Assembly (NCBI RefSeq): GCF_016903815.1
Contig: NZ_CP069973.1
Direction: 5' to 3' (one strand)
Origin: Escherichia coli
GTDB lineage: Bacteria; Pseudomonadota; Gammaproteobacteria; Enterobacterales; Enterobacteriaceae
Length of the DNA: 64,000 bases
Under the pieces are notes generated by a model, which was not told the origin of the DNA, ran no database searches, and was given only the letters and a program-made list of their open reading frames with translations. Below, in pieces: positions 1 to 27,867 of this stretch; position 1 is the first letter of the stretch, and every line of letters begins with the position of its first letter. The position numbers were made by a program, and so were the translations under genes.

Positions 1-213
1 AAAGTGATGCAGGTAAGCGCAATGGCGGACCAGATGCTGCTGGATGCCAAAAATCCGCAAAGCGCGGGCAACCGACGCATTGAGATTATGGTGCTGACCA
101 AAAGTGCGTCCGATACGCTGTATCAATACTTTGGTCAGCATGGGGATAAAGTGGTGCAGCCGCTGGTGCAAAAGCTGGATAAGCAGCAGGTGCTTTCGCA
201 GCGAACGCGCTAG
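1..213 (+). CDS. lafU: 3' end of MotB/OmpA-like flagellar motor protein (partial, runs off window start)
   Basis: ORF in frame from position 1, stop at 211-213; C-terminal sequence (…NRRIEIMVLTK…) looks OmpA-like; sits immediately upstream of dinB as in E. coli. Symbol is from recollection of gene order. Confidence 0.45.
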   Translation, partial: KVMQVSAMADQMLLDAKNPQSAGNRRIEIMVLTKSASDTLYQYFGQHGDKVVQPLVQKLDKQQVLSQRTR

Positions 214-249
214 ATGCTGAATCTTTACGCATTTCTCAAACCCTGAAAT

Positions 250-269
250 CACTGTATACTTTACCAGTG
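250..269. promoter_or_regulatory. LexA (SOS) box upstream of dinB
   Basis: Palindrome cACTGTATACTTTACCAGTg fits the CTGT-N8-xCAG LexA pattern, about 15 bp before the dinB start. Confidence 0.7.
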
Positions 270-283
270 TTGAGAGGTGAGCA

Positions 284-1339
284 ATGCGTAAAATCATTCA
301 TGTGGATATGGACTGCTTTTTCGCCGCAGTGGAGATGCGCGACAATCCCGCCCTGCGCGATATCCCTATTGCTATTGGCGGCAGCCGCGAACGTCGGGGG
401 GTGATCAGCACCGCCAATTATCCCGCGCGTAAATTTGGCGTACGTAGCGCTATGCCGACAGGGATGGCGCTCAAATTATGCCCACATCTCACCTTGCTTC
501 CGGGGCGCTTTGACGCCTACAAAGAAGCCTCAAATCATATCCGTGAAATCTTCTCGCGCTACACCTCGCGTATTGAACCGTTGTCACTGGATGAAGCCTA
601 TCTCGATGTCACTGATAGCGTCCATTGCCACGGTTCTGCGACCCTCATCGCCCAGGAAATCCGCCAGACAATCTTCAACGAGCTGCAACTGACGGCGTCT
701 GCGGGCGTGGCACCAGTAAAGTTTCTCGCCAAAATCGCCTCCGACATGAATAAACCCAACGGCCAGTTTGTGATTACGCCGGCAGAAGTTCCGACATTTT
801 TACAAACCTTACCGCTGGCAAAAATCCCCGGCGTCGGCAAAGTCTCGGCGGCAAAACTGGAAGCGATGGGGCTGCGGACCTGCGGTGATGTGCAAAAGTG
901 TGATCTGGTGACTCTGCTCAAACGTTTTGGCAAATTTGGCCGCATTTTGTGGGAGCGTAGTCAGGGGATTGACGAGCGCGACGTTAACAGCGAACGGTTG
1001 CGAAAATCTGTCGGCGTGGAACGCACGATGGCGGAAGATATTCATCACTGGTCTGAATGTGAAGCGATTATCGAGCGGCTGTATCCGGAACTTGAACGTC
1101 GTCTGGCAAAAGTAAAACCTGATTTACTGATTGCTCGCCAGGGGGTGAAATTAAAGTTCGACGATTTTCAGCAAACTACTCAGGAGCACGTCTGGCCGCG
1201 GCTGAATAAAGCTGATCTAATCGCCACCGCGCGTAAAACCTGGGATGAACGCCGCGGCGGGCGCGGTGTGCGACTGGTGGGGCTGCATGTGACGTTGCTT
1301 GACCCTCAAATGGAAAGACAACTGGTGCTGGGATTATGA
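284..1339 (+). CDS. dinB: DNA polymerase IV (Y-family translesion polymerase)
   Basis: 351-aa ORF; N-terminus [20 protein letters not shown] is the typical Y-family start; preceded by a LexA box; followed by yafNOP. Confidence 0.95.
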
Positions 1340-1390
1340 TGTATACTATTATGTCTATTCTGGTGTGCATTATTATGAGGGGATCACTGT

Positions 1391-1684
1391 ATGCATCGAA
1401 TTCTCGCTGAAAAATCGGTCAATATCACTGAGTTACGTAAAAACCCAGCTAAATACTTTATTGATCAACCGGTTGCGGTTCTTTCTAATAATCGCCCCGC
1501 AGGATATCTCTTAAGTGCCAGCGCATTCGAAGCGTTAATGGACATGCTTGCTGAACAAGAGGAGAAAAAGCCCATAAAGGCGCGCTTCCGTCCGAGTGCT
1601 GCAAGATTAGAGGAAATTACACGCCGCGCTGAACAATATCTTAATGATATGACGGATGATGATTTCAATGACTTTAAGGAATAA
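1391..1684 (+). CDS. yafN: Type II antitoxin YafN
   Basis: 97-aa ORF immediately followed (2-bp gap) by the toxin ORF; Phd/YefM-like sequence. Confidence 0.85.
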   Translation: MHRILAEKSVNITELRKNPAKYFIDQPVAVLSNNRPAGYLLSASAFEALMDMLAEQEEKKPIKARFRPSAARLEEITRRAEQYLNDMTDDDFNDFKE

Positions 1685-1686
1685 GG

Positions 1687-2085
1687 ATGCGGGTATTCAA
1701 AACAAAACTTATTCGCCTGCAACTTACAGCAGAGGAACTTGATGCGTTAACGGCGGATTTTATTTCCTATAAGCGTGACGGTATTTTGCCAGATATATTT
1801 GGTCGCGATGCACTCTACGACGACTCGTTTACCTGGCCATTAATCAAATTTGAGCGAGTTGCTCATATTCATCTGGCAAATGTGAATAATCCATTTCCGC
1901 CACAGTTGCGCCAATTCAGCAGAACGAATGACGAAGCGCATTTGGTATATTGTCAGGGGGCGTTTGATGAGCAAGCATGGTTGCTCATTGCCATTCTGAA
2001 GCCTGAACCTCATAAACTGGCTCGAGATAACAACCAAATGCATAAAATTGGAAAAATGGCAGAAGCGTTTCGCATGCGTTTTTGA
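1687..2085 (+). CDS. yafO: Type II toxin YafO (ribosome-dependent mRNA interferase)
   Basis: 132-aa ORF tightly coupled to yafN in the dinB operon. Confidence 0.85.
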   Translation: MRVFKTKLIRLQLTAEELDALTADFISYKRDGILPDIFGRDALYDDSFTWPLIKFERVAHIHLANVNNPFPPQLRQFSRTNDEAHLVYCQGAFDEQAWLLIAILKPEPHKLARDNNQMHKIGKMAEAFRMRF

Positions 2086-2094
2086 ATTTATATT

Positions 2095-2547
2095 ATGAAT
2101 AACATACAAATAAGAGATTATCAGCCTGGCGATTTTCAGCAACTATGCGCTATTTTCATTAGAGCGGTTACGATGACCGCCAGTCAGCATTATTCACCAC
2201 AACAAATTGCCGCCTGGGCGCAGATTGACGAATCTCGCTGGAAGGAGAAACTCGCGAAATCACAAGTGCGGGTTGCAGTCATTAATGCAAAACTGGTCGG
2301 CTTTATTACCTGCGTTGAACACTATATCGATATGTTATTTGTTGACCCTGAATACACCCGCCGTGGGGTTGCCAGCGCTTTGTTAAAACCTTTGATTAAG
2401 TCTGAATCCGAACTTACAGTGGACGCCAGCATAACCGCAAAACCCTTTTTTGAACGTTATGGTTTTCAGACAGTTAAGCAGCAGCGCGTTGAATGCAGGG
2501 GAGCGTGGTTTACTAATTTTTCTATGCGATATAAACCGCAACATTAA
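2095..2547 (+). CDS. yafP: GNAT-family N-acetyltransferase
   Basis: 150-aa ORF, last gene of the dinB-yafNOP operon; GNAT-like sequence. Confidence 0.8.
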   Translation: MNNIQIRDYQPGDFQQLCAIFIRAVTMTASQHYSPQQIAAWAQIDESRWKEKLAKSQVRVAVINAKLVGFITCVEHYIDMLFVDPEYTRRGVASALLKPLIKSESELTVDASITAKPFFERYGFQTVKQQRVECRGAWFTNFSMRYKPQH

Positions 2548-2791
2548 ATCCAGCTTGCAATGAAAATAACGCCCGCCTGGTATGTGCGCGTTTTCTTATT
2601 CCACAAACTGCAAGGAGGTAAATCATGACAAATCCTTTATCAATGACTCTTTGCAGACCTTTCCAGGATTAATTCTTTTTTCTTGCCCTGGATTCGTCTG
2701 CCATTTCCTGATTTTTATATTTATATACTCTAAATAATTCGAGTCGCAGTACATGCAACTTGAAGTATGACGAGTATAAATGGAATGATAC

Positions 2792-2994
2792 ATGGGCAAA
2801 TATATTCGTCCCTTATCCGATGCGGTATTTACCATCGCATCTGATGACCTGTGGATCGAGAGTTTAGCGATTCAACAATTACACACCACGGCAAATTTAC
2901 CCAACATGCAGCGCGTAGTAGGGATGCCAGATTTACACCCCGGACGCGGCTACCCGATTGGCGCAGCGTTATTCTCTGTTGGTCGTTTTTACCC
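2792..2994 (+). pseudogene. ykfJ: RtcB-like RNA ligase N-terminal fragment
   Basis: Short ORF with RtcB-like motif ([15 protein letters not shown]) that then runs out of frame; 3' boundary approximate. Confidence 0.55.
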
Positions 2995-3346
2995 GGCAAG
3001 ACGTCGCGGTAACGGTGCTGGAAACAGAAACGGGCCGCTACTCTGACACGCTGCGTTCGGCGCTGATTTCTCTGGATGGCGATAACGCATGGGCATTAAG
3101 CGAAAGTTGGTGCGGCACTATTCAGTGGATTTGTCCGAGTCCGTATCGGCCTCATCATGGGCGCAAAAACTTGTTTCTGGGCATGCTAACAAGCGGCTGG
3201 CGCGATTGCTGATTGCCTGGACGCTGGAACAACAGCAACAGGAAAATAGCGCGGTGCTGAAATCGCGGCGGCGAATGTTCCATCACCAGATTGAACGTGG
3301 CAACCCGAGACGGACATTTACAGGGATGGCTTTTATCGAAGGATAA
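2995..3346 (+). pseudogene. prfH: Peptide-chain-release-factor homologue, disrupted
   Basis: PrfH-like segments split between two frames (ORFs 2958-3212 and 3089-3346); fused to the RtcB fragment by an apparent deletion. Confidence 0.55.
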
Positions 3347-3402
3347 TGAAGGATGAAACTGCCGGAAGGCGATTAAACGCCATCCGGCAGCAAATCAAAT
3401 AA

Positions 3403-4860
3403 TTACTTCGCCGGAATTTCTTTCAGCAGCTCAGTCAGCAGTGTCCAGTAATGACCTACGCTTTCGATGTGAACTTGCTCATCCGGAGAGTGTGGACCGG
3501 TGATTGTTGGCCCGATAGAAACCATGTCCATTTCCGGATACGGTTTTTTGAACAGACCACATTCCAGGCCCGCGTGGATAATCTGGATGTTCGGCGTCTT
3601 GTTGAACAGACGCTGATAAGTTTCACGTACCAGATGCATCACCGGAGAATTAGCGTCCGGCTGCCAGCCAGGATATGCGCCTTTCGCTTCGGTTTTCGCG
3701 CCAGCCAGTTTACCCAGCGAATCCAGCATGCTCACCACGTAGTCTTTACCGCTGTCGATCAGAGAACGGATCAGGCAGTGAATTTCTACGTTATTGTCAG
3801 TCATGGTCACCACACCGACGTTCAGGGAGGTTTCCACCACACCTTTTGCCACATCGGAATTGCGGATCACACCGTTCGGGGTGGCGTTCAGCAGACGAAT
3901 AAAGGTATCGCGAGATTTCGCAATCAGGGCAGCTTTATCGTTCGCAACAGAGTCCAGCAGCAATGCCAGATTTTTCTCTTTCTCTGCCAGCTCGTTTTTC
4001 AGGATCTCCTGATAGGTATTCACCAGAGATTTCAGGGCGTCGACTTTATCAGCTGCGACAGCAATGGTCGCAAAGGCTTCACGCGGGATGGCGTTACGCA
4101 GTGTGCCACCGTTGAAATCGATAAGGCGCAGGTCCAGCTCTTCTGCATGACCCGCCAGGAAGCGCACCAGCAGTTTGTTGGCATTACCCAGGCCAACGTG
4201 GATTTCACCGCCGGAGTGACCGCCTTTCAGGCCTTTTAAGGTTAACTTGAAGGTTTCAAAACCAGCTGGAACCGCTTCACGATCTAAATGCAGGTTGGAG
4301 GTGAAGTCGATACCCCCCGCGCAACCCATGTAGATTTCACCTTCCTCTTCGGAGTCGGTGTTAATCAGAATATCAGCCTGCAACCAGTTGCTCTGTAAGC
4401 CAAAAGCACCATCCATACCGGCTTCTTCGGTCATGGTCAGCAGCACTTCCAGCGGGCCGTGAACCACGTTTTCGTCAGCCAGAACAGCCAGCGCAGACGC
4501 CATACCAATGCCGTTATCCGCACCCAGCGTGGTGCCGCGCGCTTTAACCCATTCGCCATCAATATAAGGCTGGATAGGATCTTTAGTGAAGTCATGCACG
4601 GTGTCGTTATTTTTCTGCGGCACCATATCGAGGTGGGCCTGCAAGACGACTGGTTTACGATTTTCCATACCTGCGGTAGCAGGTTTACGAATCAGGATAT
4701 TACCTACCTGATCGCGTTCGACATGGAAACCTTTCTCTTTTGCCCAACCAACAATGTATTCAGCGAGTTGCTCTTCATGATAGGACGGGTGAGGAATAGA
4801 ACAGATTTTGGCAAAAATATCCCACAGCGGCTGTGGAGATAATTGAGACAGTTCAGACAC
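3403..4860 (-). CDS. pepD: Cytosol non-specific dipeptidase (peptidase D)
   Basis: 485-aa ORF; M20-family peptidase sequence, recognised as PepD. Confidence 0.95.
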   Translation of the reverse strand: MSELSQLSPQPLWDIFAKICSIPHPSYHEEQLAEYIVGWAKEKGFHVERDQVGNILIRKPATAGMENRKPVVLQAHLDMVPQKNNDTVHDFTKDPIQPYIDGEWVKARGTTLGADNGIGMASALAVLADENVVHGPLEVLLTMTEEAGMDGAFGLQSNWLQADILINTDSEEEGEIYMGCAGGIDFTSNLHLDREAVPAGFETFKLTLKGLKGGHSGGEIHVGLGNANKLLVRFLAGHAEELDLRLIDFNGGTLRNAIPREAFATIAVAADKVDALKSLVNTYQEILKNELAEKEKNLALLLDSVANDKAALIAKSRDTFIRLLNATPNGVIRNSDVAKGVVETSLNVGVVTMTDNNVEIHCLIRSLIDSGKDYVVSMLDSLGKLAGAKTEAKGAYPGWQPDANSPVMHLVRETYQRLFNKTPNIQIIHAGLECGLFKKPYPEMDMVSIGPTITGPHSPDEQVHIESVGHYWTLLTELLKEIPAK

Positions 4861-5120: not shown

Positions 5121-5579
5121 ATGAGCGAAAAATACATCGTCACCTGGGACATGTTGCAGATCCATGCACGTAAACTCGCAAGCCGACTGATGCCTTCTGA
5201 ACAATGGAAAGGCATTATTGCCGTAAGCCGTGGCGGTCTGGTACCGGGTGCGTTACTGGCGCGTGAACTGGGTATTCGTCATGTCGATACCGTTTGTATT
5301 TCCAGCTACGATCACGACAACCAGCGCGAGCTTAAAGTGCTGAAACGCGCAGAAGGCGATGGCGAAGGCTTCATCGTTATTGATGACCTGGTGGATACCG
5401 GTGGTACTGCGGTTGCGATTCGTGAAATGTATCCAAAAGCGCACTTTGTCACCATCTTCGCAAAACCGGCTGGTCGCCCGCTGGTTGATGATTATGTTGT
5501 TGATATCCCGCAAGATACCTGGATCGAACAGCCGTGGGATATGGGCGTCGTATTCGTCCCGCCAATCTCCGGTCGCTAA
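5121..5579 (+). CDS. gpt: Xanthine-guanine phosphoribosyltransferase
   Basis: 152-aa ORF with PRTase motif ([11 protein letters not shown]). Confidence 0.95.
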
Positions 5580-11238: not shown

Positions 11239-11314
11239 GCCGATATAGCTCAGTTGGTAGAGCAGCGCATTCGTAATGCGAAGGTCGGAGGTTCGACTCC
11301 TCTTATCGGCACCA
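11239..11314 (+). tRNA. thrW: tRNA-Thr (CGU anticodon)
   Basis: 76-nt sequence GCCGATATAGCTCAGTTGGTAGAGCAGC…GGTTCGACTCCTCTTATCGGCACCA with cloverleaf features and encoded CCA; position after proA matches thrW. Confidence 0.9.
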
Positions 11315-11328
11315 TTAAAATCAATAAG

Positions 11329-11595
11329 TTACACATCATTAGTACCTTCCTTATTTTTTGACTGGGACAAATTTGGGACCGATGGGTTCAGGACTGAGTC
11401 TATTTGCCGTGCGTGTTCGGTAAGGTGATTAGGCGCGAGGTGAGCATATCGACGAACCATTTCGATAGACTCCCAGCCTCCCATTTCTGAAAATGCAAGA
11501 AGAGAAACACTGGACTGAACCAGCCTGCTTGCCTTTGCTATCAAAGTACCTTGAAGGCCAGATGATTTCTGGCGATATTTACAGCGCTTCCGCAA
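11329..11595 (-). pseudogene. Tyrosine-recombinase (phage integrase) C-terminal remnant
   Basis: ORF ends in …[30 protein letters not shown]…, a typical P4-like integrase C-terminus; the upstream part is degenerate and there is no room for the catalytic core; lies 15 bp from the tRNA 3' end. Confidence 0.7.
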
Positions 11596-11677
11596 TGAGT
11601 TTTTCTCTGTGCCGCCAGAGGCGTTCCCCGCTTTTTCAGCACCGCAATAATGTCGGCGGAATGCCAGTCCTGTTGCA

Positions 11678-12148
11678 TCATGCGGCCACCTCGCTGATAA
11701 ATTTTACGCCGTCGGCGGTACGCAGCCAGCGTGGGGCTTTGAGTCCTTCCGTGAAATACCAGACCAGCTCACACAGCAGCCCGGTCAGGGTTTGCTCCAT
11801 TTTTGGTTCCGCCGGACGTTCCAGCAGAAGCTGGAGTAGTGCGAGGCAGTATTCGCACAAGGAATCAGGTTCGGAAATAAAGTGCTCTGGTGTGGCGGGA
11901 AGGGTATCCACGGTCAGGCTTTCGGTAAGATGCGGTGGGATGGGGTCGTGTAGTGTGGGTTGCAGTAGCGCAAGAGCCGCGTGAAGCCGCCCGCAGAGCG
12001 CCAGTCGTAGCGCTGGATCGTCGGTTTCAATCAGGGTTTCGGCAAAGCGGGCGCAGTAGTCAGCAAGGACAGTGAAATCCGTGGTGGCATTGAAGGGGAC
12101 GGTCAATAGATCGAGTAAATCGCTGTCAGTGGTGAGGATTGTAGCCAT
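11678..12148 (-). CDS. Hypothetical acidic protein (156 aa), unknown function
   Basis: Clean ORF with an AGGAGG-like RBS (ggaggttgcc) just upstream of its ATG; leucine/acidic-rich; no family recognised by eye. Confidence 0.5.
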
Positions 12149-12494
12149 AGGGCAACCTCCGATAAGTGGGTGTTCAAGCCACCACCGGAGAGGCTAATCT
12201 CGCGGGTGGTGGAACCGGGCAGGGTTAGCCTTACCAGCCTTATCGGACACTGGCGCGTCTTGCGACGCCCCCGCCCGGCCCACCATTGAGATGTAACCGT
12301 GCGAACAACACAAAAAAAGACGCTGGCGCGTCATGTGTCGCCGATAAGATTTCTTCAGGAGGCTAATCCCGACGCCTGATTTTGCAGGCGCGGGAGAAAG
12401 ATACTGCGATTGGTCATGAGTGGCAAGGGCTACATCATGTTTACCAACATCTCACGCAAAAATACCCTGATTATTAATAGCGAAAATCAGTTTC

Positions 12495-15400
12495 TTATTT
12501 TGGCGGTAGCTTTTTGCGGTTCTTTGCCAACTGGAATCCTTCAGGTAACGGTTTGAATTTATCGCCGCCTTTAGGCCAGCGTTTTGCCCTGCTCTGAAAT
12601 GCCCTTAACGAGTCGATATCCAGCGTTGCAGCGACCACAAAGTCATTATCACCGCCCTTCACACGAGCAATATCACGCATAAAGGGTTCTTTTGCCGGGG
12701 AACGTACGCGACTATCGCCGTATTTTCGGTTATTCACTAAAATAGTATAGGCATGAATATCCAGCGCTGCTGATTCAATCAACGATGCAAACGTATCTAG
12801 ATCTTTATTCCAGCTCAATACCATTAATGCATCGAGTGCGCCCTGAAAACGGATCCTCGCTTTACTATTCTGGAGTTCAGAGCAAATCATAACGCCAAAA
12901 TTGACGCCGTGATGAATATATACCGGCTTACGTTGTTTAACATTAAGTGTCGAATCCCAAGACTTACCATAAATTGAAAATAATGCCTCATCTTCACCTA
13001 CGGCGGGTTCCAGCTTGGGTTGCCATATTTTGACACTCGCTGGATAGCCGAGTCTGTTATCTGAAAGGACAAGTACGGCCTCACTCTTCAGTTGATTATC
13101 GTCTAAGTGGCGGTATTCTGTTCCCGCAATTAGACTGATACCCGCCGAACTCAAACGATCAGCAATACTGTTAACCCAGCGTAACGGGATTGAAAGCTCA
13201 GGGAATAAAACATAATCAGGTTTAGGAGATAGTTTCAATGTTGCATTAACCAGTTCAGAAATCCGCTGGTACCTTGAACGGGACAAGTTAGATTTATTGC
13301 AGGCCATTTTAGCCCAGTCGTCCTCCTCTGTTTTAATGCTGGTTAGCGCAACGACAACTTTATGTTTCCTGTCTGTGCCAATATGAATGAATTTCTTAGG
13401 CCGAGCTTTTTTTGTCGCTTCATCTGAGTCCTGCTCCGATGCTAGCAACGTCGGTTTGATCCATACTCCGCGTAATGCTTGAGTATATTTTGCCCAAATG
13501 GTGGACGGTCTCTCATCTGGTTTTTTGTCGGATGTGGAGGGTAATCCAACACATTCGGGGGCCAGTTCTGATATTTCAGCGGGTGTTAAAGGACGTGTAG
13601 GGAAAATGTAAGGTAGGTAACTTTCGTTCTTACGATTTCCTTTAGCCACTTTTTCCAGTCGGGTATTCTTGGTTGATTTCAAAAATAGCTTAATAACGTC
13701 AATATCAATAAGCGATGAGTCGCTCATTAATTTCAGTATTTTAACTTCTTTTTTACTATCACGCTGATTAACAAGTTTTTCTGCCGACTGACTCTTTACG
13801 ATCTGTTTATAAGGTTCCTTTGCTAAATCAGCTCGAGCTACCAATGGCGCTTTTAAATAAAAATCTGCTGAATCAAAGCGAAGATCCAGTAAATCCTTTA
13901 GATTCGTCAGACTTTGTGAAATATGATTAAAAAATGTATCCGCAAGGCACTCTTCTTTCTTTGAACGTTTATCAAGAAATAATCTGTCAGGACTGTAATA
14001 TCGTGTCGCTGCATCAACAAATAGCCAGCTTAATGTGCCTTTTATACAGCGCCAAAGATCATTTACTGCTCGAGTTTTGCAACCATTTATATTCACTTCC
14101 TTACCTGAAGTAATCACCGATGCCAACAGGTTGATGGATTCGTAAGCTTTAAGTACAATTTTTTCCGCGTGCTGCCATTCATTCATACTGATAGCAAAGC
14201 CAAGCAGCCTTGGCAGATAACTAAAATGTGCAAATAGATTATCAGCCCTAAGAATATGGTTGTAGGCAAACTGATAAAACTCTTCCCGCTGTTCTTTCCA
14301 TTCACTTGGAGGCAGATCTCGTGCCAGTGTTTCAACGTAGCGTAATTGCAGTGACCAGCCCAAACGACGAATGGTTAATCCATCCGCACGGCGCAGAGTA
14401 TCGGCATTTTCACCTACACTACCGGCAGCGGAAAGGACTTTAGCTGCGGTGGAGTGTTCCAGTTGATCCGGTGAAGGCATCAAGCGGTGTTCACTAGAAA
14501 GCTCGTAGATCTCCTTTTCGATACTGTCGAGCAGGTCTATTCCAGCCCTCCCTTGAAGCACGAAAAGTTTTTGCTTATCGGATTGTAACTGGATGGTGGT
14601 CTTACCCTGGAAATGCTCGCCCTGCTGTATTTGCCATATTTGTTTTTGCTCGTTTTTCAAATAAACGCAATCATTGCCAAGCCTATCTTGCAGCAATAAC
14701 ATAAATTCGTGATTATTAGTAATTGTCCCTGTATCGCGTATTACAAGGAACATATCATCGACATAACGACCGTAGTGAATTGGTGATAGTTTTTCAATGA
14801 CTAATTTATCCCAATGGTGTAGCAATATATTTGAAATGATCCGACTGGCTGTTAATCCAATGACCAGACCACCATTAATAACAGGTGTTTTGTACGCTAT
14901 TTTCTTTCCAAATGCCGCTGCGCCGTCAGACCAGTGCTTTAAGAATACTGCTAACTGTGCAGTAAACGCTTTTTCATCCTCAGTCAGTTTTATGTTTAGT
15001 GTGTTATAGAGATCATCAGAGGTTATAGCCAGTGGATCAATAAAATGATAGTAACTTTTTAAATCCAGTGAGGCGGCGATAATGTCACGATCTTTTTCCA
15101 ACTCGTCACGTATAGCTTTTAAGCCATCACCACGCCATTTTTGGTAGGGCTGGAAGTAGGGGCTAAAAGAACCCACGGCACTGATATGGAATGGATTATC
15201 CTGCTCATTGCTAAATAATTCATCATTACGAATACGCTTTAGCCGCGCGCCATAGCAACAGTTATCTAAGCTGGCATCAAATTTATGCCCGACCATGTTA
15301 ATCCATAGTGCAGAGATAATGTGACTATCAACCGGGAAGTCACCAATAATACGAAACTCTGGTATCAGATCAAAATTATTAAATAAATGGTCGGCTGCTC

Positions 15401-15704
15401 GTTTAGGATTAGAAAAGTGGACGTGTCCATTTTGGGATTCATGTTTTTTCTTTGTGGTTAATTTTTTCGGTAACAAACGAAATTTGCCAATCAACTTCTT
15501 ATTGCTACTGAATCCATCTTCGCTCTGCAAAAGATCTAAGAGTTTTTGCAGGTTTTCAAGTAATTCCTGCTCATACTCGGCAAATTTGATAGCAACAGGA
15601 AATGTATTCTCAAAGAAGCTATCGGCTTTTGCTTTCCGGTAAGCGACCAGAAGGTCTTCAATCGTCAGATCATCCCAGCCAGTGAAAATTGCCTGATATG
15701 TCAT
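12495..15704 (-). CDS. Reverse transcriptase fused to a C-terminal nitrilase (carbon-nitrogen hydrolase) domain; candidate defence-associated RT (UG/DRT-like)
   Basis: 1069-aa ORF. RT motifs: ASLDLKSYYHFID (motif A), GLVIGLTASRIISNIL (motif B-like), YGRYVDDMFLV (YVDD at 14754-14765). C-terminal nitrilase-like triad candidates: FPELSIP (Glu codon 13197-13199), a Lys near VKIWQPK, GVMICSE (Cys codon 12881-12883). Confidence 0.8.
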   Translation of the reverse strand: MTYQAIFTGWDDLTIEDLLVAYRKAKADSFFENTFPVAIKFAEYEQELLENLQKLLDLLQSEDGFSSNKKLIGKFRLLPKKLTTKKKHESQNGHVHFSNPKRAADHLFNNFDLIPEFRIIGDFPVDSHIISALWINMVGHKFDASLDNCCYGARLKRIRNDELFSNEQDNPFHISAVGSFSPYFQPYQKWRGDGLKAIRDELEKDRDIIAASLDLKSYYHFIDPLAITSDDLYNTLNIKLTEDEKAFTAQLAVFLKHWSDGAAAFGKKIAYKTPVINGGLVIGLTASRIISNILLHHWDKLVIEKLSPIHYGRYVDDMFLVIRDTGTITNNHEFMLLLQDRLGNDCVYLKNEQKQIWQIQQGEHFQGKTTIQLQSDKQKLFVLQGRAGIDLLDSIEKEIYELSSEHRLMPSPDQLEHSTAAKVLSAAGSVGENADTLRRADGLTIRRLGWSLQLRYVETLARDLPPSEWKEQREEFYQFAYNHILRADNLFAHFSYLPRLLGFAISMNEWQHAEKIVLKAYESINLLASVITSGKEVNINGCKTRAVNDLWRCIKGTLSWLFVDAATRYYSPDRLFLDKRSKKEECLADTFFNHISQSLTNLKDLLDLRFDSADFYLKAPLVARADLAKEPYKQIVKSQSAEKLVNQRDSKKEVKILKLMSDSSLIDIDVIKLFLKSTKNTRLEKVAKGNRKNESYLPYIFPTRPLTPAEISELAPECVGLPSTSDKKPDERPSTIWAKYTQALRGVWIKPTLLASEQDSDEATKKARPKKFIHIGTDRKHKVVVALTSIKTEEDDWAKMACNKSNLSRSRYQRISELVNATLKLSPKPDYVLFPELSIPLRWVNSIADRLSSAGISLIAGTEYRHLDDNQLKSEAVLVLSDNRLGYPASVKIWQPKLEPAVGEDEALFSIYGKSWDSTLNVKQRKPVYIHHGVNFGVMICSELQNSKARIRFQGALDALMVLSWNKDLDTFASLIESAALDIHAYTILVNNRKYGDSRVRSPAKEPFMRDIARVKGGDNDFVVAATLDIDSLRAFQSRAKRWPKGGDKFKPLPEGFQLAKNRKKLPPK

Positions 15705-15998
15705 GCGTTATCGTCCTTAGATTACAGTCTGTACAGAATTAGCCAGCCGTTTCATGCCCGAAGGGGGGCTCTTGACACCAGTAATCCATCAGTGAGGCTG
15801 GCAATAATTTTGATTTGTATCCATGTTACACGCTCCCCGCAACCAGTCCGAGCATATATTTGTCACATTTTTCCCGAAAGTGATTAAGTTTGAATTTTTT
15901 GTTTAATGTCGATTTTTAGTCGACAAAATGAGGAATAAGTAAACTATTTCTTGCTGTGGCGTATCCCTGAATCTACACTGGTTTAAATATTTGTACTA

Positions 15999-16802
15999 AT
16001 GTCTATTCAGAGGCGACAGTTGCCAAACTATCTAAACTGGCTGATGCAGCACACGCTACCCGGCCAGGTGCTGCTCCAGTCATGGCTTACCCGCAACGGC
16101 ATAGATCGTAAGCTCTCTTATCTCTATGTGAAGAATGGCTGGCTCAGGCGGATCGCTCACGGCGTATACTGCCGGACGGGTCGTGAACCGGATTGGGTGG
16201 ATGCGGTTTACTGCCTGCAATCGCAGTGGGAAAAGCCTGTTCGGGTGGCGGGGCTAACCAGCCTTGCGCTTCAGGGTCATGCGCACTATACCGAACAGGG
16301 TAAGCCGCAGGTCTGGCTCGCGCTTCCGGCTTACGTCAAACTGCCGGGATGGTTTTCTGCCTTTGAACAATCCGCAACATTTGTCACGCTGTATACGTCA
16401 GGCCTTACCGCTGATGTAACGCCATTTACTACGGAACTGAAAATTGGTGACCGGCAGTTAGCGGGCAGTGTCCCGGAACTGGTCGCGTATGAGATCGCTT
16501 GTGGCGTTCCTTCGTTGATCTCGTTCGAACATGCCGATGCTCTGTTTCAGGGGATGAATCTTCTCAGCCCGCGTAAATTGCAGGCGTTACTCTGCGCCAG
16601 TCATTCGGTTAAAACCAACCGGGTGATGCTTTACCTTGCCCGGCGTAATGGACACCCTTATTTTCAGTTTATTGATCAAAGCGGTATAGAAACAGGTACG
16701 GGAAAGCGGCAAATCATACCCGGCGGCTGGCTGGAGCCGGATTATCAAATTACTGTTCCACGCGCATTTAAACCGGAAGGAGTCGAAGATGGATCTGCGT
16801 GA
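15999..16802 (+). CDS. AbiEi-like antitoxin/transcriptional regulator (type IV TA / abortive infection)
   Basis: 267-aa ORF; N-terminal segment (…LYVKNGWLRRIAHGVYCR…) matches the AbiEi wHTH signature; overlaps the next gene by 14 bp. Confidence 0.65.
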   Translation: MSIQRRQLPNYLNWLMQHTLPGQVLLQSWLTRNGIDRKLSYLYVKNGWLRRIAHGVYCRTGREPDWVDAVYCLQSQWEKPVRVAGLTSLALQGHAHYTEQGKPQVWLALPAYVKLPGWFSAFEQSATFVTLYTSGLTADVTPFTTELKIGDRQLAGSVPELVAYEIACGVPSLISFEHADALFQGMNLLSPRKLQALLCASHSVKTNRVMLYLARRNGHPYFQFIDQSGIETGTGKRQIIPGGWLEPDYQITVPRAFKPEGVEDGSA

Positions 16803-17709
16803 TAGCTATGCCCGGCAGGTCAAACTGTTGATGGCCGCTCTGCCGTATGTGGCGAAGGAGTCCTGTTTCGCGTTGAAAGGCGGCACCGCAATCAATTTGT
16901 TTGTGCAGGATTTTCCCCGTCTGTCGGTGGATATTGATCTGGCGTATAAGAGCTTTGCGGATCGCGATACTGATCTGGCGGCTATCAACGACGCTTTGAA
17001 GAGGATTACTGCATCGCTGAACGGCAGACCGGGGATCACCGCGATTCGGCAGGAAAATAAAGCGGATGAAAAGCGCATCATTGTGAATACCGCTGATGCA
17101 AAGATTAAGATCGAGGTTAGCCCGGTCTGGCGCGGGCTGTTGTTGCCTCCGGCAGAAATGCCTGTGTGCGAACGTGTGGAAATGGAGTATGGCTTCACCA
17201 CCATGAGTGTCGTCTCGCTGGCGGATCTTTATGGCGGTAAAATCTGCGCAGCGCTTGATCGTCAGCACCCGCGCGATCTGTTTGATGTGCTGAATATGCT
17301 GGAGAAACCGGGACTGATGCGGGAGATCTTTGACGGTTTTCTTTGTTATCTGGCAGGCCATCCCCGCCCCATTGCCGAGTTGCTGGCCCCAAACTGGGAT
17401 ACAGAGCGGATCACGACGCTGTATGCTCAGGAATTTTCGGGGATGACTCAGCAGGAAACGTCGCTGGAATCGCTGCTGTCAGTAACGACTTTGCTGCCGC
17501 AGGCGTTGAAGTCACATCTTACGGATCTGGATCGCGAGTTCTTGCTCAGTTTTAAGCAAAACAGCCCTGACTGGTCGCGGTATCGCTATCCTGAAATTCA
17601 GCATCTTCCGGCTATTCGCTGGAAGCAACGTAATCTGGCGGTGCTGAAAGATAAAAATCCGGCGAAGTATGTGGCGGCGGTGAATAAGCTAGAGAGGGTG
17701 CTGGCGTAA
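16789..17709 (+). CDS. AbiEii-like nucleotidyltransferase toxin (DUF1814-type)
   Basis: 306-aa ORF with nucleotidyltransferase motif FALKGGTAINLF…RLSVDIDLAY; translationally coupled to the upstream AbiEi-like gene. Confidence 0.7.
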   Translation: MDLRDSYARQVKLLMAALPYVAKESCFALKGGTAINLFVQDFPRLSVDIDLAYKSFADRDTDLAAINDALKRITASLNGRPGITAIRQENKADEKRIIVNTADAKIKIEVSPVWRGLLLPPAEMPVCERVEMEYGFTTMSVVSLADLYGGKICAALDRQHPRDLFDVLNMLEKPGLMREIFDGFLCYLAGHPRPIAELLAPNWDTERITTLYAQEFSGMTQQETSLESLLSVTTLLPQALKSHLTDLDREFLLSFKQNSPDWSRYRYPEIQHLPAIRWKQRNLAVLKDKNPAKYVAAVNKLERVLA

Positions 17710-27619: not shown

Positions 27620-27632
27620 TGCATTGAATAAT

Positions 27633-27662
27633 AAAAATGGCGCAAATGCAGCGCCATTTTTA
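27633..27662. terminator. Hairpin terminator between yagU and ykgJ
   Basis: aaaaatggcgc…gcgccattttt stem flanked by A- and T-runs, between convergent genes. Confidence 0.55.
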
Positions 27663-27867
27663 TAGGTTAAAAACATTGCTTTTTACTTTCTGAAGCAGAT
27701 AGCCAGTGAGTACATCGCGCTACTTCAGGATGCTGTAGATCCGGAGAACACTATAGAGGAAGATGCATTGTTGCTGGCAGATGGAAGAAGTTTCGGGTTT
27801 TGTTATCCCTGAAAAACGAAGCCCCGCGGTTATAGCTGGCGGGGCAGTGCAATTAATTATTGCATAT

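Follow-up and report, generated by a model that had tools for sequence, protein, structure and literature searches.

The locus at 250-2547 raises the question of whether, and through which arrangement of genes and promoters, a type II toxin–antitoxin (TA) pair is placed under SOS control together with a translesion polymerase. It lies in a window, i.e., the whole stretch of DNA that was analysed, of 64,000 nucleotides; the genes, the dinB promoter, the dinB-yafN spacer, the two direct-repeat copies and the candidate operon end described below are on its plus strand, and the LexA box is assigned no strand. Four co-oriented genes are present: dinB (284-1339), coding for DNA polymerase IV (Pol IV), a Y-family translesion polymerase of 351 aa; yafN (1391-1684), for a Phd/YefM-type antitoxin of 97 aa; yafO (1687-2085), for a ribosome-dependent mRNA interferase toxin of 132 aa; and yafP (2095-2547), for a GNAT N-acetyltransferase of 150 aa. 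These are separated by gaps of 51, 2 and 9 bp, respectively. The 2-bp separation of yafN and yafO given in the original prediction can be read directly from the letters, with the yafN stop TAA at 1682-1684, GG at 1685-1686 and the yafO ATG starting at 1687. Strain 7/2 and similar E. coli chromosomes are 100% identical to positions 1-3400 of the window, and the RefSeq annotation at the matching chromosomes reads dinB/yafN/yafO/yafP. All four proteins match NCBIfam equivalog models as well as Pfam families and are identical or near-identical to those of K-12, and the predicted gene identities and order hold at these coordinates. The locus is the chromosomal dinB-yafN-yafO-yafP operon of E. coli in its intact four-gene form, and an ordinary one.

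The two outer genes encode typical members of their families. DinB matches the Pfam IMS domain (4.9e-51), along with the IMS_C and HHH (IMS_HHH) domains, and the NCBIfam equivalog NF002677 (546.6 bits). As in a Y-family Pol IV, it retains the catalytic acidic residues D8, D10, D103 and E104 and, at the C-terminus, the beta-clamp-binding QLVLGL; it differs from K-12 DinB by two amino acid changes, A171T and M210T. YafP, with ten amino acid substitutions relative to K-12, matches Pfam Acetyltransf_10 (6.3e-20) and the NCBIfam equivalog NF007338 (325.5 bits).

The LexA box predicted at 250-269, CACTGTATACTTTACCAGTG, has exactly the sequence of the dinB box published for K-12, the 25-mer of which (ATCACTGTATACTTTACCAGTGTTG; PMC3009722 Table 4) is found unaltered at 248-272. 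It carries the CTG-N10-CAG arrangement of the LexA regulon and lies 15 bp upstream of the dinB ATG. A consensus scan predicts the dinB promoter, PdinB, at 233-260 (-35 TTCTCA at 233-238, a 16-bp spacer and -10 TATACT at 255-260; 9/12 consensus matches), and the -10 hexamer of this consensus-predicted promoter falls inside the span of the box, as expected of promoter occlusion. Comparison with a LexA-box matrix, by which the original prediction was to be checked, used a position weight matrix (PWM) derived from 17 published boxes other than that of dinB. The box scores 13.17 bits, a low value for a genuine site (the weakest training site scores 13.4), and ranks second in the window; the top-ranked site, at 5288-5307, sits within gpt and lacks the invariant CTG. 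An equal or higher score arises in 28/200 dinucleotide shuffles of the 64 kb (14%; a mean of 0.16 sites per shuffle), and by score alone the box is only weakly above chance. The shuffle counts lead us to estimate the probability of such a score within the 70-bp promoter region at about 2e-4. The looser pattern CTGT-N8-ACAG with at most one mismatch proved uninformative as a test (21 matches in the window against 17.8 expected), and the PWM was used instead.

A chance match, with dinB-yafNOP not regulated by LexA in this strain, would account for a score that window shuffles also reach and for a core pattern that occurs at chance frequency. However, the same sequence was recovered in K-12 as the box of a gene induced by UV (PMC3009722), for which an HI of 9.4 is reported together with a 5.4-fold induction of dinB by AZT and a 6.9-fold lexA dependence (PMC11228462). 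Further, the box overlaps the -10 hexamer, and the 70-bp promoter region that includes it is identical to K-12 at 70/70 positions and is found in 5,410/5,426 E. coli genomes at at least 95% identity. In five diverse strains the box is the same save at position 20 (G>A in ST131), and a contig from a sister Escherichia species carries a stronger one (19.75 bits) at the equivalent location. The box is therefore convincing on account of its position, its species-wide conservation and the published experiments rather than its score, and we consider a chance match exceedingly improbable.

With regard to whether this promoter serves all four genes, the genes are co-oriented and closely spaced, and the consensus scan finds no convincing terminator-like site in 284-2547, and none in the dinB-yafN spacer. 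The sole internal candidate, located where yafO ends (2060-2084), is a weak hairpin of 9 pairs, only 3 of them G-C, with a T-rich tail; it could attenuate transcription into yafP. RNA folding places a candidate operon end at 2568-2600, formed by the hairpin AACGCCCGCCUGGUAUGUGCGCGUU followed by UUCUUAUU; this assignment is weak because the hairpin (2568-2592) has no stability advantage over shuffled sequences (z -0.10) and was missed by the consensus terminator scan. In K-12, dinB is given as the first gene of the four-gene operon in PMC3105422, which cites McKenzie 2003; both PMC3105422 and PMC2814082 quote that study, which used RT-PCR, for a junction-spanning operon transcript. Additionally, mitomycin C induces yafNO mRNA, an induction that is lost upon deletion of the dinB promoter (PMC2814082). 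Ciprofloxacin raises the four transcripts together, the log2 fold changes at 120 min after treatment being 3.13 for dinB, 2.00 for yafN, 2.15 for yafO and 2.00 for yafP (PMC11002266).

These observations bear on the proposition that yafNOP is transcribed separately from dinB, without read-through. It is favoured by an independent promoter mapped upstream of yafN (PMC2814082) and by a promoter-like TGGAAA-18-TATGAT at 1311-1340 found in the consensus scan. It is, however, contradicted by the lack of a terminator-like site from the dinB stop to the yafN start, by the reported K-12 transcript across this junction, by the effect of the PdinB deletion on mitomycin C induction of yafNO and by the parallel rise of all four transcripts, and we hold it to be highly improbable. 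The original prediction was to fall if independent promoters separated dinB from yafNOP with no read-through. The first part of this is borne out, as the interval from dinB to yafN does contain an independent promoter autoregulated by YafN (PMC2814082), but read-through from PdinB still occurs. The SOS-operon interpretation stands because this read-through takes place and is the sole source of the yafNO SOS response.

The second promoter, PyafNO, is assigned to the dinB-yafN spacer (1340-1390) on the basis of published work, which describes it as independent, YafN-autoregulated and Lon-dependent (PMC2814082). The spacer differs from that of K-12 by two SNPs, at 1355 (A>C) and 1382 (T>G), and contains a Shine-Dalgarno sequence, GAGGGG (1376-1381), upstream of yafN. 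An imperfect 21-nt direct repeat spans 1333-1353 and 1357-1377, and a search with a seed of 6 found no inverted repeat in the spacer. Two candidate YafN operator motifs, TGTATAC (1340-1346) and TGTGCAT (1364-1370), conform to the pattern TGTRYAY, which recurs 5' of yafN in five other loci as against 0.03 occurrences expected per 80 bp, with the pattern having been derived post hoc from these same loci. This repeated TGT(A/G)(T/C)A(C/T) is likely to be the YafN operator. No LexA-like site is detected by the PWM within 1300-1400 of either the window or K-12 (best -6 bits), in agreement with the conclusion of Christensen-Dalsgaard et al. that SOS induction does not act through the proximal promoter. 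A 'putative LexA box', placed by these authors in the yafNO promoter, was likewise sought with the PWM and rejected in both sequences, at the same best score.

The pair itself has the organization of a type II TA module: two small, adjacent, co-oriented and tightly spaced genes with the antitoxin gene first; in yafNO homologues the genes overlap by 1 or 4 bp. YafN is identical to its K-12 counterpart and matches Pfam PF02604, a Phd/YefM domain, barely over the cutoff (31.5 versus 29.8 bits), as well as the NCBIfam equivalog NF007300 (196.7 bits; cutoff 99), while its score with TIGR01552 phd_fam falls slightly under the threshold (19.4 against 20.8). YafO belongs to the YafO family by Pfam PF13957 (9.1e-39) and NCBIfam NF007377 (244.7 bits). 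It differs from K-12 YafO by V33I and E66V, both at non-conserved positions, and keeps all the near-invariant positions of the family (F25, Y28, F38, G39, D41, H60, H62, Y88, H109, A125 and F128). The family is small, with 146 PF13957 cluster representatives at E <=1e-3 among 1.84 billion proteins. An AlphaFold model of YafO (pLDDT 97.9) displays a RelE/HigB-type alpha/beta fold; in a phmmer search against all PDB sequences, no toxin was recovered at E <=1, and PF13957 is the only Pfam family assigned. YafO is therefore related to RelE, HigB and YoeB by its fold and not by its sequence. Sequence searches of the PDB returned no structure of YafO or YafN, and PADLOC returned no model matching either.

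Experimentally, YafO has been described as cleaving mRNA in a ribosome-dependent manner (PMC2814082; PMC7781912), with a cut reported 11-13 nt past the start codon (PMC7781912). In K-12, YafO has been reported to be toxic and to be neutralised by YafN, and the pair to be autoregulated and activated in a Lon-dependent manner (PMC2814082). Instead of the reported 50S-bound cleavage 11-13 nt past the start, YafO, given the HigB2-like fold of the model, may use the ribosomal A site as HigB and RelE do. The claim of a type II TA module under SOS control with a translesion polymerase is supported, the near-identical K-12 operon having been characterised in published work.

This leaves the question of what the SOS link means for the pair. 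The yafNO genes constitute a clean 759-bp indel between two copies of a 7-bp direct repeat, ATTATGA, the left copy (1333-1339) containing the dinB stop and the right copy (2092-2098) the yafP start codon. Strains without yafNO read GGATTATGAATAAC at the junction, with a single ATTATGA copy, and in these genomes dinB and yafP overlap by ATGA. The cassette is present in 2,837/5,416 E. coli genomes and absent from about 48%, a polymorphism that agrees with PMC3105422. Homologues of yafNO at 48-70% identity stand alone beside unrelated genes with no dinB, one of them adjoining an integrase and an IS element, and the PWM finds no LexA-like box upstream of these free-standing versions (best 1.1 to 6.3 bits). 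A further locus (L017; 79% YafO) was dropped, as it gives no translation to the query and resembles G>A-converted reads.

This pattern, together with the cassette's own autoregulated promoter (PMC2814082), lends weight to the possibility that the SOS coupling is incidental, i.e., that a selfish, self-contained TA cassette that happens to be situated between dinB and yafP is co-induced by read-through alone and adds nothing that the damage response requires. Such a reading contests the functional interpretation of the locus and not its anatomy. However, a sister Escherichia (L014) and E. fergusonii (PMC3105422) retain the four-gene arrangement, and in another locus (L016) a divergent yafNO allele directly follows the 3' end of dinB; the linkage of dinB and yafNO is therefore old and recurrent. 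Moreover, other SOS-linked toxins of E. coli, namely dinJ-yafQ, symE, tisB and hokE (PMC2814082), hint at selection for couplings of this kind. On balance, we rate incidental coupling as a serious contender with somewhat less than even chances. The stronger formulation, that yafNO is a portable cassette complete with promoter, TGTRYAY operator, antitoxin and toxin, bounded by ATTATGA, and coupled to the SOS response purely by position, strikes us as rather doubtful. Such a cassette may have entered an ancestral dinB-ATGA-yafP overlap or may have been precisely excised several times via the repeats. This idea is mostly contained in Gutierrez et al. 2011 already; added here are the repeat of 7 bp, the conservation of the operator motif, the homologues that stand alone and lack a LexA box, and the fold assignment of YafO.

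Returning to the SOS-operon interpretation, we are close to certain of the model as a whole, namely a four-gene operon with a LexA-held PdinB, read-through and a second, YafN-repressed promoter. In the uninduced state, LexA dimers on the weak box at 250-269 would cover the -10 of PdinB and keep transcription low. Upon DNA damage, RecA-stimulated self-cleavage of LexA would release PdinB, from which a single transcript would extend through dinB, supplying Pol IV for translesion synthesis, and on through yafN, yafO and yafP. As a second input independent of PdinB, YafN would repress the promoter in the 51-bp spacer, and during starvation or translation arrest degradation of YafN by Lon would derepress PyafNO. 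Free YafO, with its RelE/HigB-type fold, would then bind ribosomes, bring about mRNA cleavage and so shut down translation; YafN would neutralise it. The 2-bp gap of yafN-yafO, and the 9-nt gap between the yafO stop and the yafP start, where no obvious Shine-Dalgarno is seen, suggest that both gene pairs are probably translationally coupled. Computation established the sequence identity, the families of the genes, the score of the box and its location, the fold of YafO, the polymorphism of the cassette and the settings in which homologues occur. For this strain, regulation by LexA, read-through, the existence of the second promoter, the dependence on Lon and the action of YafO are inferred from the K-12 literature via near-identity.

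The locus exemplifies, in textbook fashion, a TA module transcriptionally tied to a mutagenic polymerase, a tie that bears on stress-induced mutagenesis and on the debate over the purpose of chromosomal TA systems. Within this window it acts as a positive control, a genuine SOS operon having been correctly recognised from the sequence. Any citation of it in this role should mention the SOS-independent second promoter, the absence of the pair from about half of E. coli and the fact that SOS control stems from its position behind dinB. The original prediction rightly judged this to be known biology: the operon, its read-through and the second promoter are all published, and the absence of yafNO from about half of E. 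coli is not new either.

Among known systems, the closest is the operon of K-12 MG1655 (b0231-b0234), which has the same genes, order and spacings, with an identical promoter, LexA box and YafN and 44 nucleotide differences across the four genes. The flanks are also shared, with lafU upstream and ykfJ/prfH remnants and pepD downstream, but a 72-bp ERIC-like insert that follows yafP in K-12 is missing from the window. The two-gene dinB-yafP operon of CFT073, ST131 and B1 strains shares the LexA box, dinB and yafP; it differs in lacking the 759-bp yafNO cassette and in its ATGA overlap, and is the form seen in about 48% of the complete genomes of E. coli (see also PMC3105422). The promoter of dinJ-yafQ, an SOS-linked RelE-family TA system, itself contains a LexA site (PMC7781912). 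No credible site of this kind belongs to yafNO (best -6 bits), whose SOS induction comes solely from PdinB further upstream; its SOS link is due to the location of the cassette behind dinB. Finally, YafO shows a sequence identity of just 7-15% to the toxins of yefM-yoeB and Vibrio cholerae HigB2-HigA2, and its reported cleavage 11-13 nt past the start codon contrasts with the A-site cleavage by RelE and YoeB (PMC7781912).

The first 3,400 nucleotides of the window (1-3400) are 100% identical to at least 12 complete E. coli chromosomes, e.g., that of strain 7/2 (NZ_CP023820.1), and the same segment finds a match at ≥90% identity in 5,420 of the 5,426 complete E. coli genomes. A mechanical ORF list and the RefSeq annotation of the identical record agree on the layout: the 3' end of lafU (1-213) is followed by dinB (284-1339; Pfam IMS, 4.9e-51; NCBIfam NF002677, 546.6 bits), yafN (1391-1684; Pfam PhdYeFM, 31.5 bits against a cutoff of 29.8; NF007300, 196.7 bits), yafO (1687-2085; Pfam PF13957, 9.1e-39; NF007377, 244.7 bits) and the GNAT gene yafP (2095-2547; NF007338, 325.5 bits), beyond which lie rtcB-family and prfH remnants (2792-3346) and, on the minus strand, pepD (3403-4860). 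All four operon products score above curated thresholds (Pfam, NCBIfam), and DinB retains D8, D10, D103 and E104 along with the C-terminal QLVLGL clamp-binding motif. ORFs, RefSeq and family matches thereby bear out the gene order of the original prediction and its 2-bp gap between yafN and yafO, in which GG separates the TAA stop (1682-1684) from the ATG start at 1687. Both RefSeq and NCBIfam NF007300 name the yafN product (1391-1684) a "type I toxin-antitoxin system antitoxin". Being a protein with a Phd/YefM domain, YafN is a type II antitoxin, and the "type I" label is an annotation-name error which has spread to thousands of genomes.

The LexA box predicted in front of dinB at 250-269 (CACTGTATACTTTACCAGTG) likewise stands. 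The matrix comparison proposed for it was carried out with a palindromised PWM derived from the 17 other boxes of Table 4 of PMC3009722. In a scan of the window the dinB box scores 13.17 bits (rank 2) and, as the training boxes range from 13.4 to 28.5 bits by the same matrix, it falls at the weak end, in accord with the heterology index of 9.4 published for it (PMC11228462). This score is by itself insufficient to establish the site because, when the 64-kb window was shuffled 200 times with dinucleotides preserved, 28 of the shuffles contained a site scoring at least as high, and the bare CTGT-N8-ACAG core occurs in the window at chance frequency. Four lines of evidence do establish it. First, the box overlaps the -10 hexamer of a predicted TTCTCA-16-TATACT promoter (233-260) directly 5' of dinB. 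Second, the box and its flanks (248-272) are the same as the K-12 dinB site listed with UV-induced genes (PMC3009722, Table 4), and the entire 70-bp lafU-dinB spacer is fully identical to that of K-12. Third, this spacer is present in 5,410 of 5,426 genomes, always at ≥95% identity, and is invariant in five diverse strains save for one position, where the ST131 change is towards the consensus. Fourth, a sister-Escherichia contig carries a stronger box, TACTGTATACTTGTCCAGTA (19.75 bits), in the same place, with nqrM instead of lafU as the upstream gene. The top-scoring sequence of the window, TACCGTTTGTATTTCCAGCT (13.76 bits; 5288-5307), falls within the coding region of gpt and reads CCG where the invariant CTG should stand; a similar sequence in gpt of the sister-Escherichia contig scores 8.27 bits. 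Chance or coding constraint most likely accounts for this match.

The regulatory data are those published for the K-12 locus, which is nearly identical. There, AZT raises dinB expression 5.4-fold, with a 6.9-fold dependence on LexA cleavage (PMC11228462), and dinB-yafN-yafO-yafP is described as a single operon by McKenzie 2003, as quoted in PMC3105422. The four transcripts increase in parallel after ciprofloxacin, with log2 fold changes at 120 min of 3.13 for dinB, 2.00 for yafN, 2.15 for yafO and 2.00 for yafP (PMC11002266); no terminator-like site was found between dinB and yafN in the window. Further, Christensen-Dalsgaard et al. mapped a second promoter directly 5' of yafN, which is repressed by YafN and activated in a Lon-dependent manner by chloramphenicol and amino-acid starvation (PMC2814082). 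The lower fold changes of the distal genes would fit a basal supply from this internal promoter. The alternative to a shared SOS response, namely an independent promoter for yafNO with no read-through from dinB, is hence correct as to the promoter, but fails as to read-through: deletion of the LexA-controlled dinB promoter abolishes mitomycin C induction of yafNO (PMC2814082). The K-12 literature accordingly supports a type II pair under SOS control together with a translesion polymerase, refined by yafNO's own promoter, and the locus was rightly called known biology, everything essential having already been published. The "putative LexA box" reported at the yafNO promoter (PMC2814082) is not supported by the matrix, which detects no LexA-like site in the dinB-yafN spacer (best score -6 bits), consistent with its lack of function.

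Two positions of this spacer, 1355 and 1382, are not as in K-12. A 21-nt direct repeat with imperfect copies (1333-1353 and 1357-1377) occupies part of the dinB-yafN region, which also holds TGTATAC (1340-1346) and TGTGCAT (1364-1370). In the 80 bp preceding yafN homologues, five other loci (L007, L009, L012, L014, L016) have one to five copies of the motif TGT(A/G)(T/C)A(C/T), against an expectation of 0.03 per 80 bp calculated from its window frequency, and it is a likely candidate for the YafN operator. As it was defined from the same sequences in which it was counted, it is a lead rather than a test.

Full operon coverage is seen in only 2,837 of the 5,416 operon-matching genomes, the remainder being without 759 bp and annotated with dinB and yafP only. 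In three strains without yafNO (ST131, SC475, E2855) dinB and yafP overlap by ATGA at the junction GGATTATGAATAAC, and in the window the 7-bp sequence ATTATGA flanks yafNO at 1333-1339 and 2092-2098. This polymorphism is already reported: Gutierrez et al. 2011 found dinB and yafP alone, overlapping by ATGA, in 40-50% of strains and, from the four-gene state of E. fergusonii, inferred that yafNO had been lost repeatedly (PMC3105422). Added here are a larger sample, the 7-bp length of the repeat and the homologue contexts. A non-coli Escherichia contig has the same four-gene operon with an 86%-identical YafO, and at L016 the gene for a 73%-identical YafO comes after the 3' end of a dinB. YafO homologues at 65-70% and 48% identity belong to free-standing two-gene modules, whose neighbours are an integrase and an IS element in one case, a molybdoenzyme operon on one side and an ABC transporter on the other in another, and other unrelated genes in a third, with no dinB nearby and no credible LexA box. 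In Escherichia, then, it is the position of yafNO that confers SOS control.

The AbiE-like island pair of the original prediction corresponds to AbiEi (16020-16802) and AbiEii (16789-17709; pair, 16020-17709), which adjoin a 1,069-aa reverse transcriptase-nitrilase (12495-15704, minus strand; PADLOC RT_UG5-nitrilase/DRT, 1,034 bits). The island (11329-17709), at thrW (tRNA-Thr, 11239-11314), also holds an integrase fragment and an ash-family gene; these, together with a C4 antisense RNA (12202-12290, minus strand) and isrK (12313-12391, minus strand), look like P4-like satellite remnants. An Rfam IS009 match (27625-27825, plus strand, 190.7 bits) lies directly downstream of yagU.

In the interval that separates yafP from the rtcB/prfH remnants, a perfect Shine-Dalgarno sequence, AAGGAGG (2613-2619), precedes an unannotated 15-codon ORF (MTNPLSMTLCRPFQD; ATG at 2625, TAA at 2670-2672), whose final codons fall within the 5' arm of an interrupted 12-bp hairpin (GCAGAC..CCAGGA / UCCUGG..GUCUGC) followed by a U-rich tract. 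Conservation of the surrounding unannotated segment (2548-2740) extends to 5,386 of 5,426 E. coli genomes, and five diverse strains show no variation in it. The element at 2613-2700, placed 5' of the rtcB2-prfH ribosome-repair operon (here only a pseudogene remnant), could be an attenuator or a leader that senses translation; its hairpin fold, however, is not significant (z -1.45), and a leader goes unmentioned in the one RtcB2-PrfH paper searched. The rtcB-family gene and prfH (2792-3346) are truncated, fused remnants, as in K-12 (ykfJ/prfH), whereas the RtcB-family gene at this position is intact in ST131, SC475 and E2855 (~380 aa). Unlike in the window (2750-2760) and three other strains, a 72-bp insert (3865-3936 of the K-12 locus, L003) separates yafP from ykfJ in K-12. 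This insert contains GTGAATCGCCAGGAGCTTACATAAGTAAGTGACTGGGGTGAACG, presumably akin to the core of an ERIC/IRU repeat.

Sequence searches found no PDB relatives of YafO or YafN, and the YafO family is small, with 146 cluster representatives at E ≤1e-3 among 1.84 billion proteins. The AlphaFold2 model of YafO, built from an alignment of 91 full-length family members (pLDDT 97.9, pTM 0.91), supports its published description as a RelE-like, ribosome-dependent mRNA interferase (PMC2814082). According to reviews, YafO binds the 50S subunit and cleaves at 11-13 nt 3' of the start codon, in contrast to the A-site cleavage of RelE (PMC7781912).
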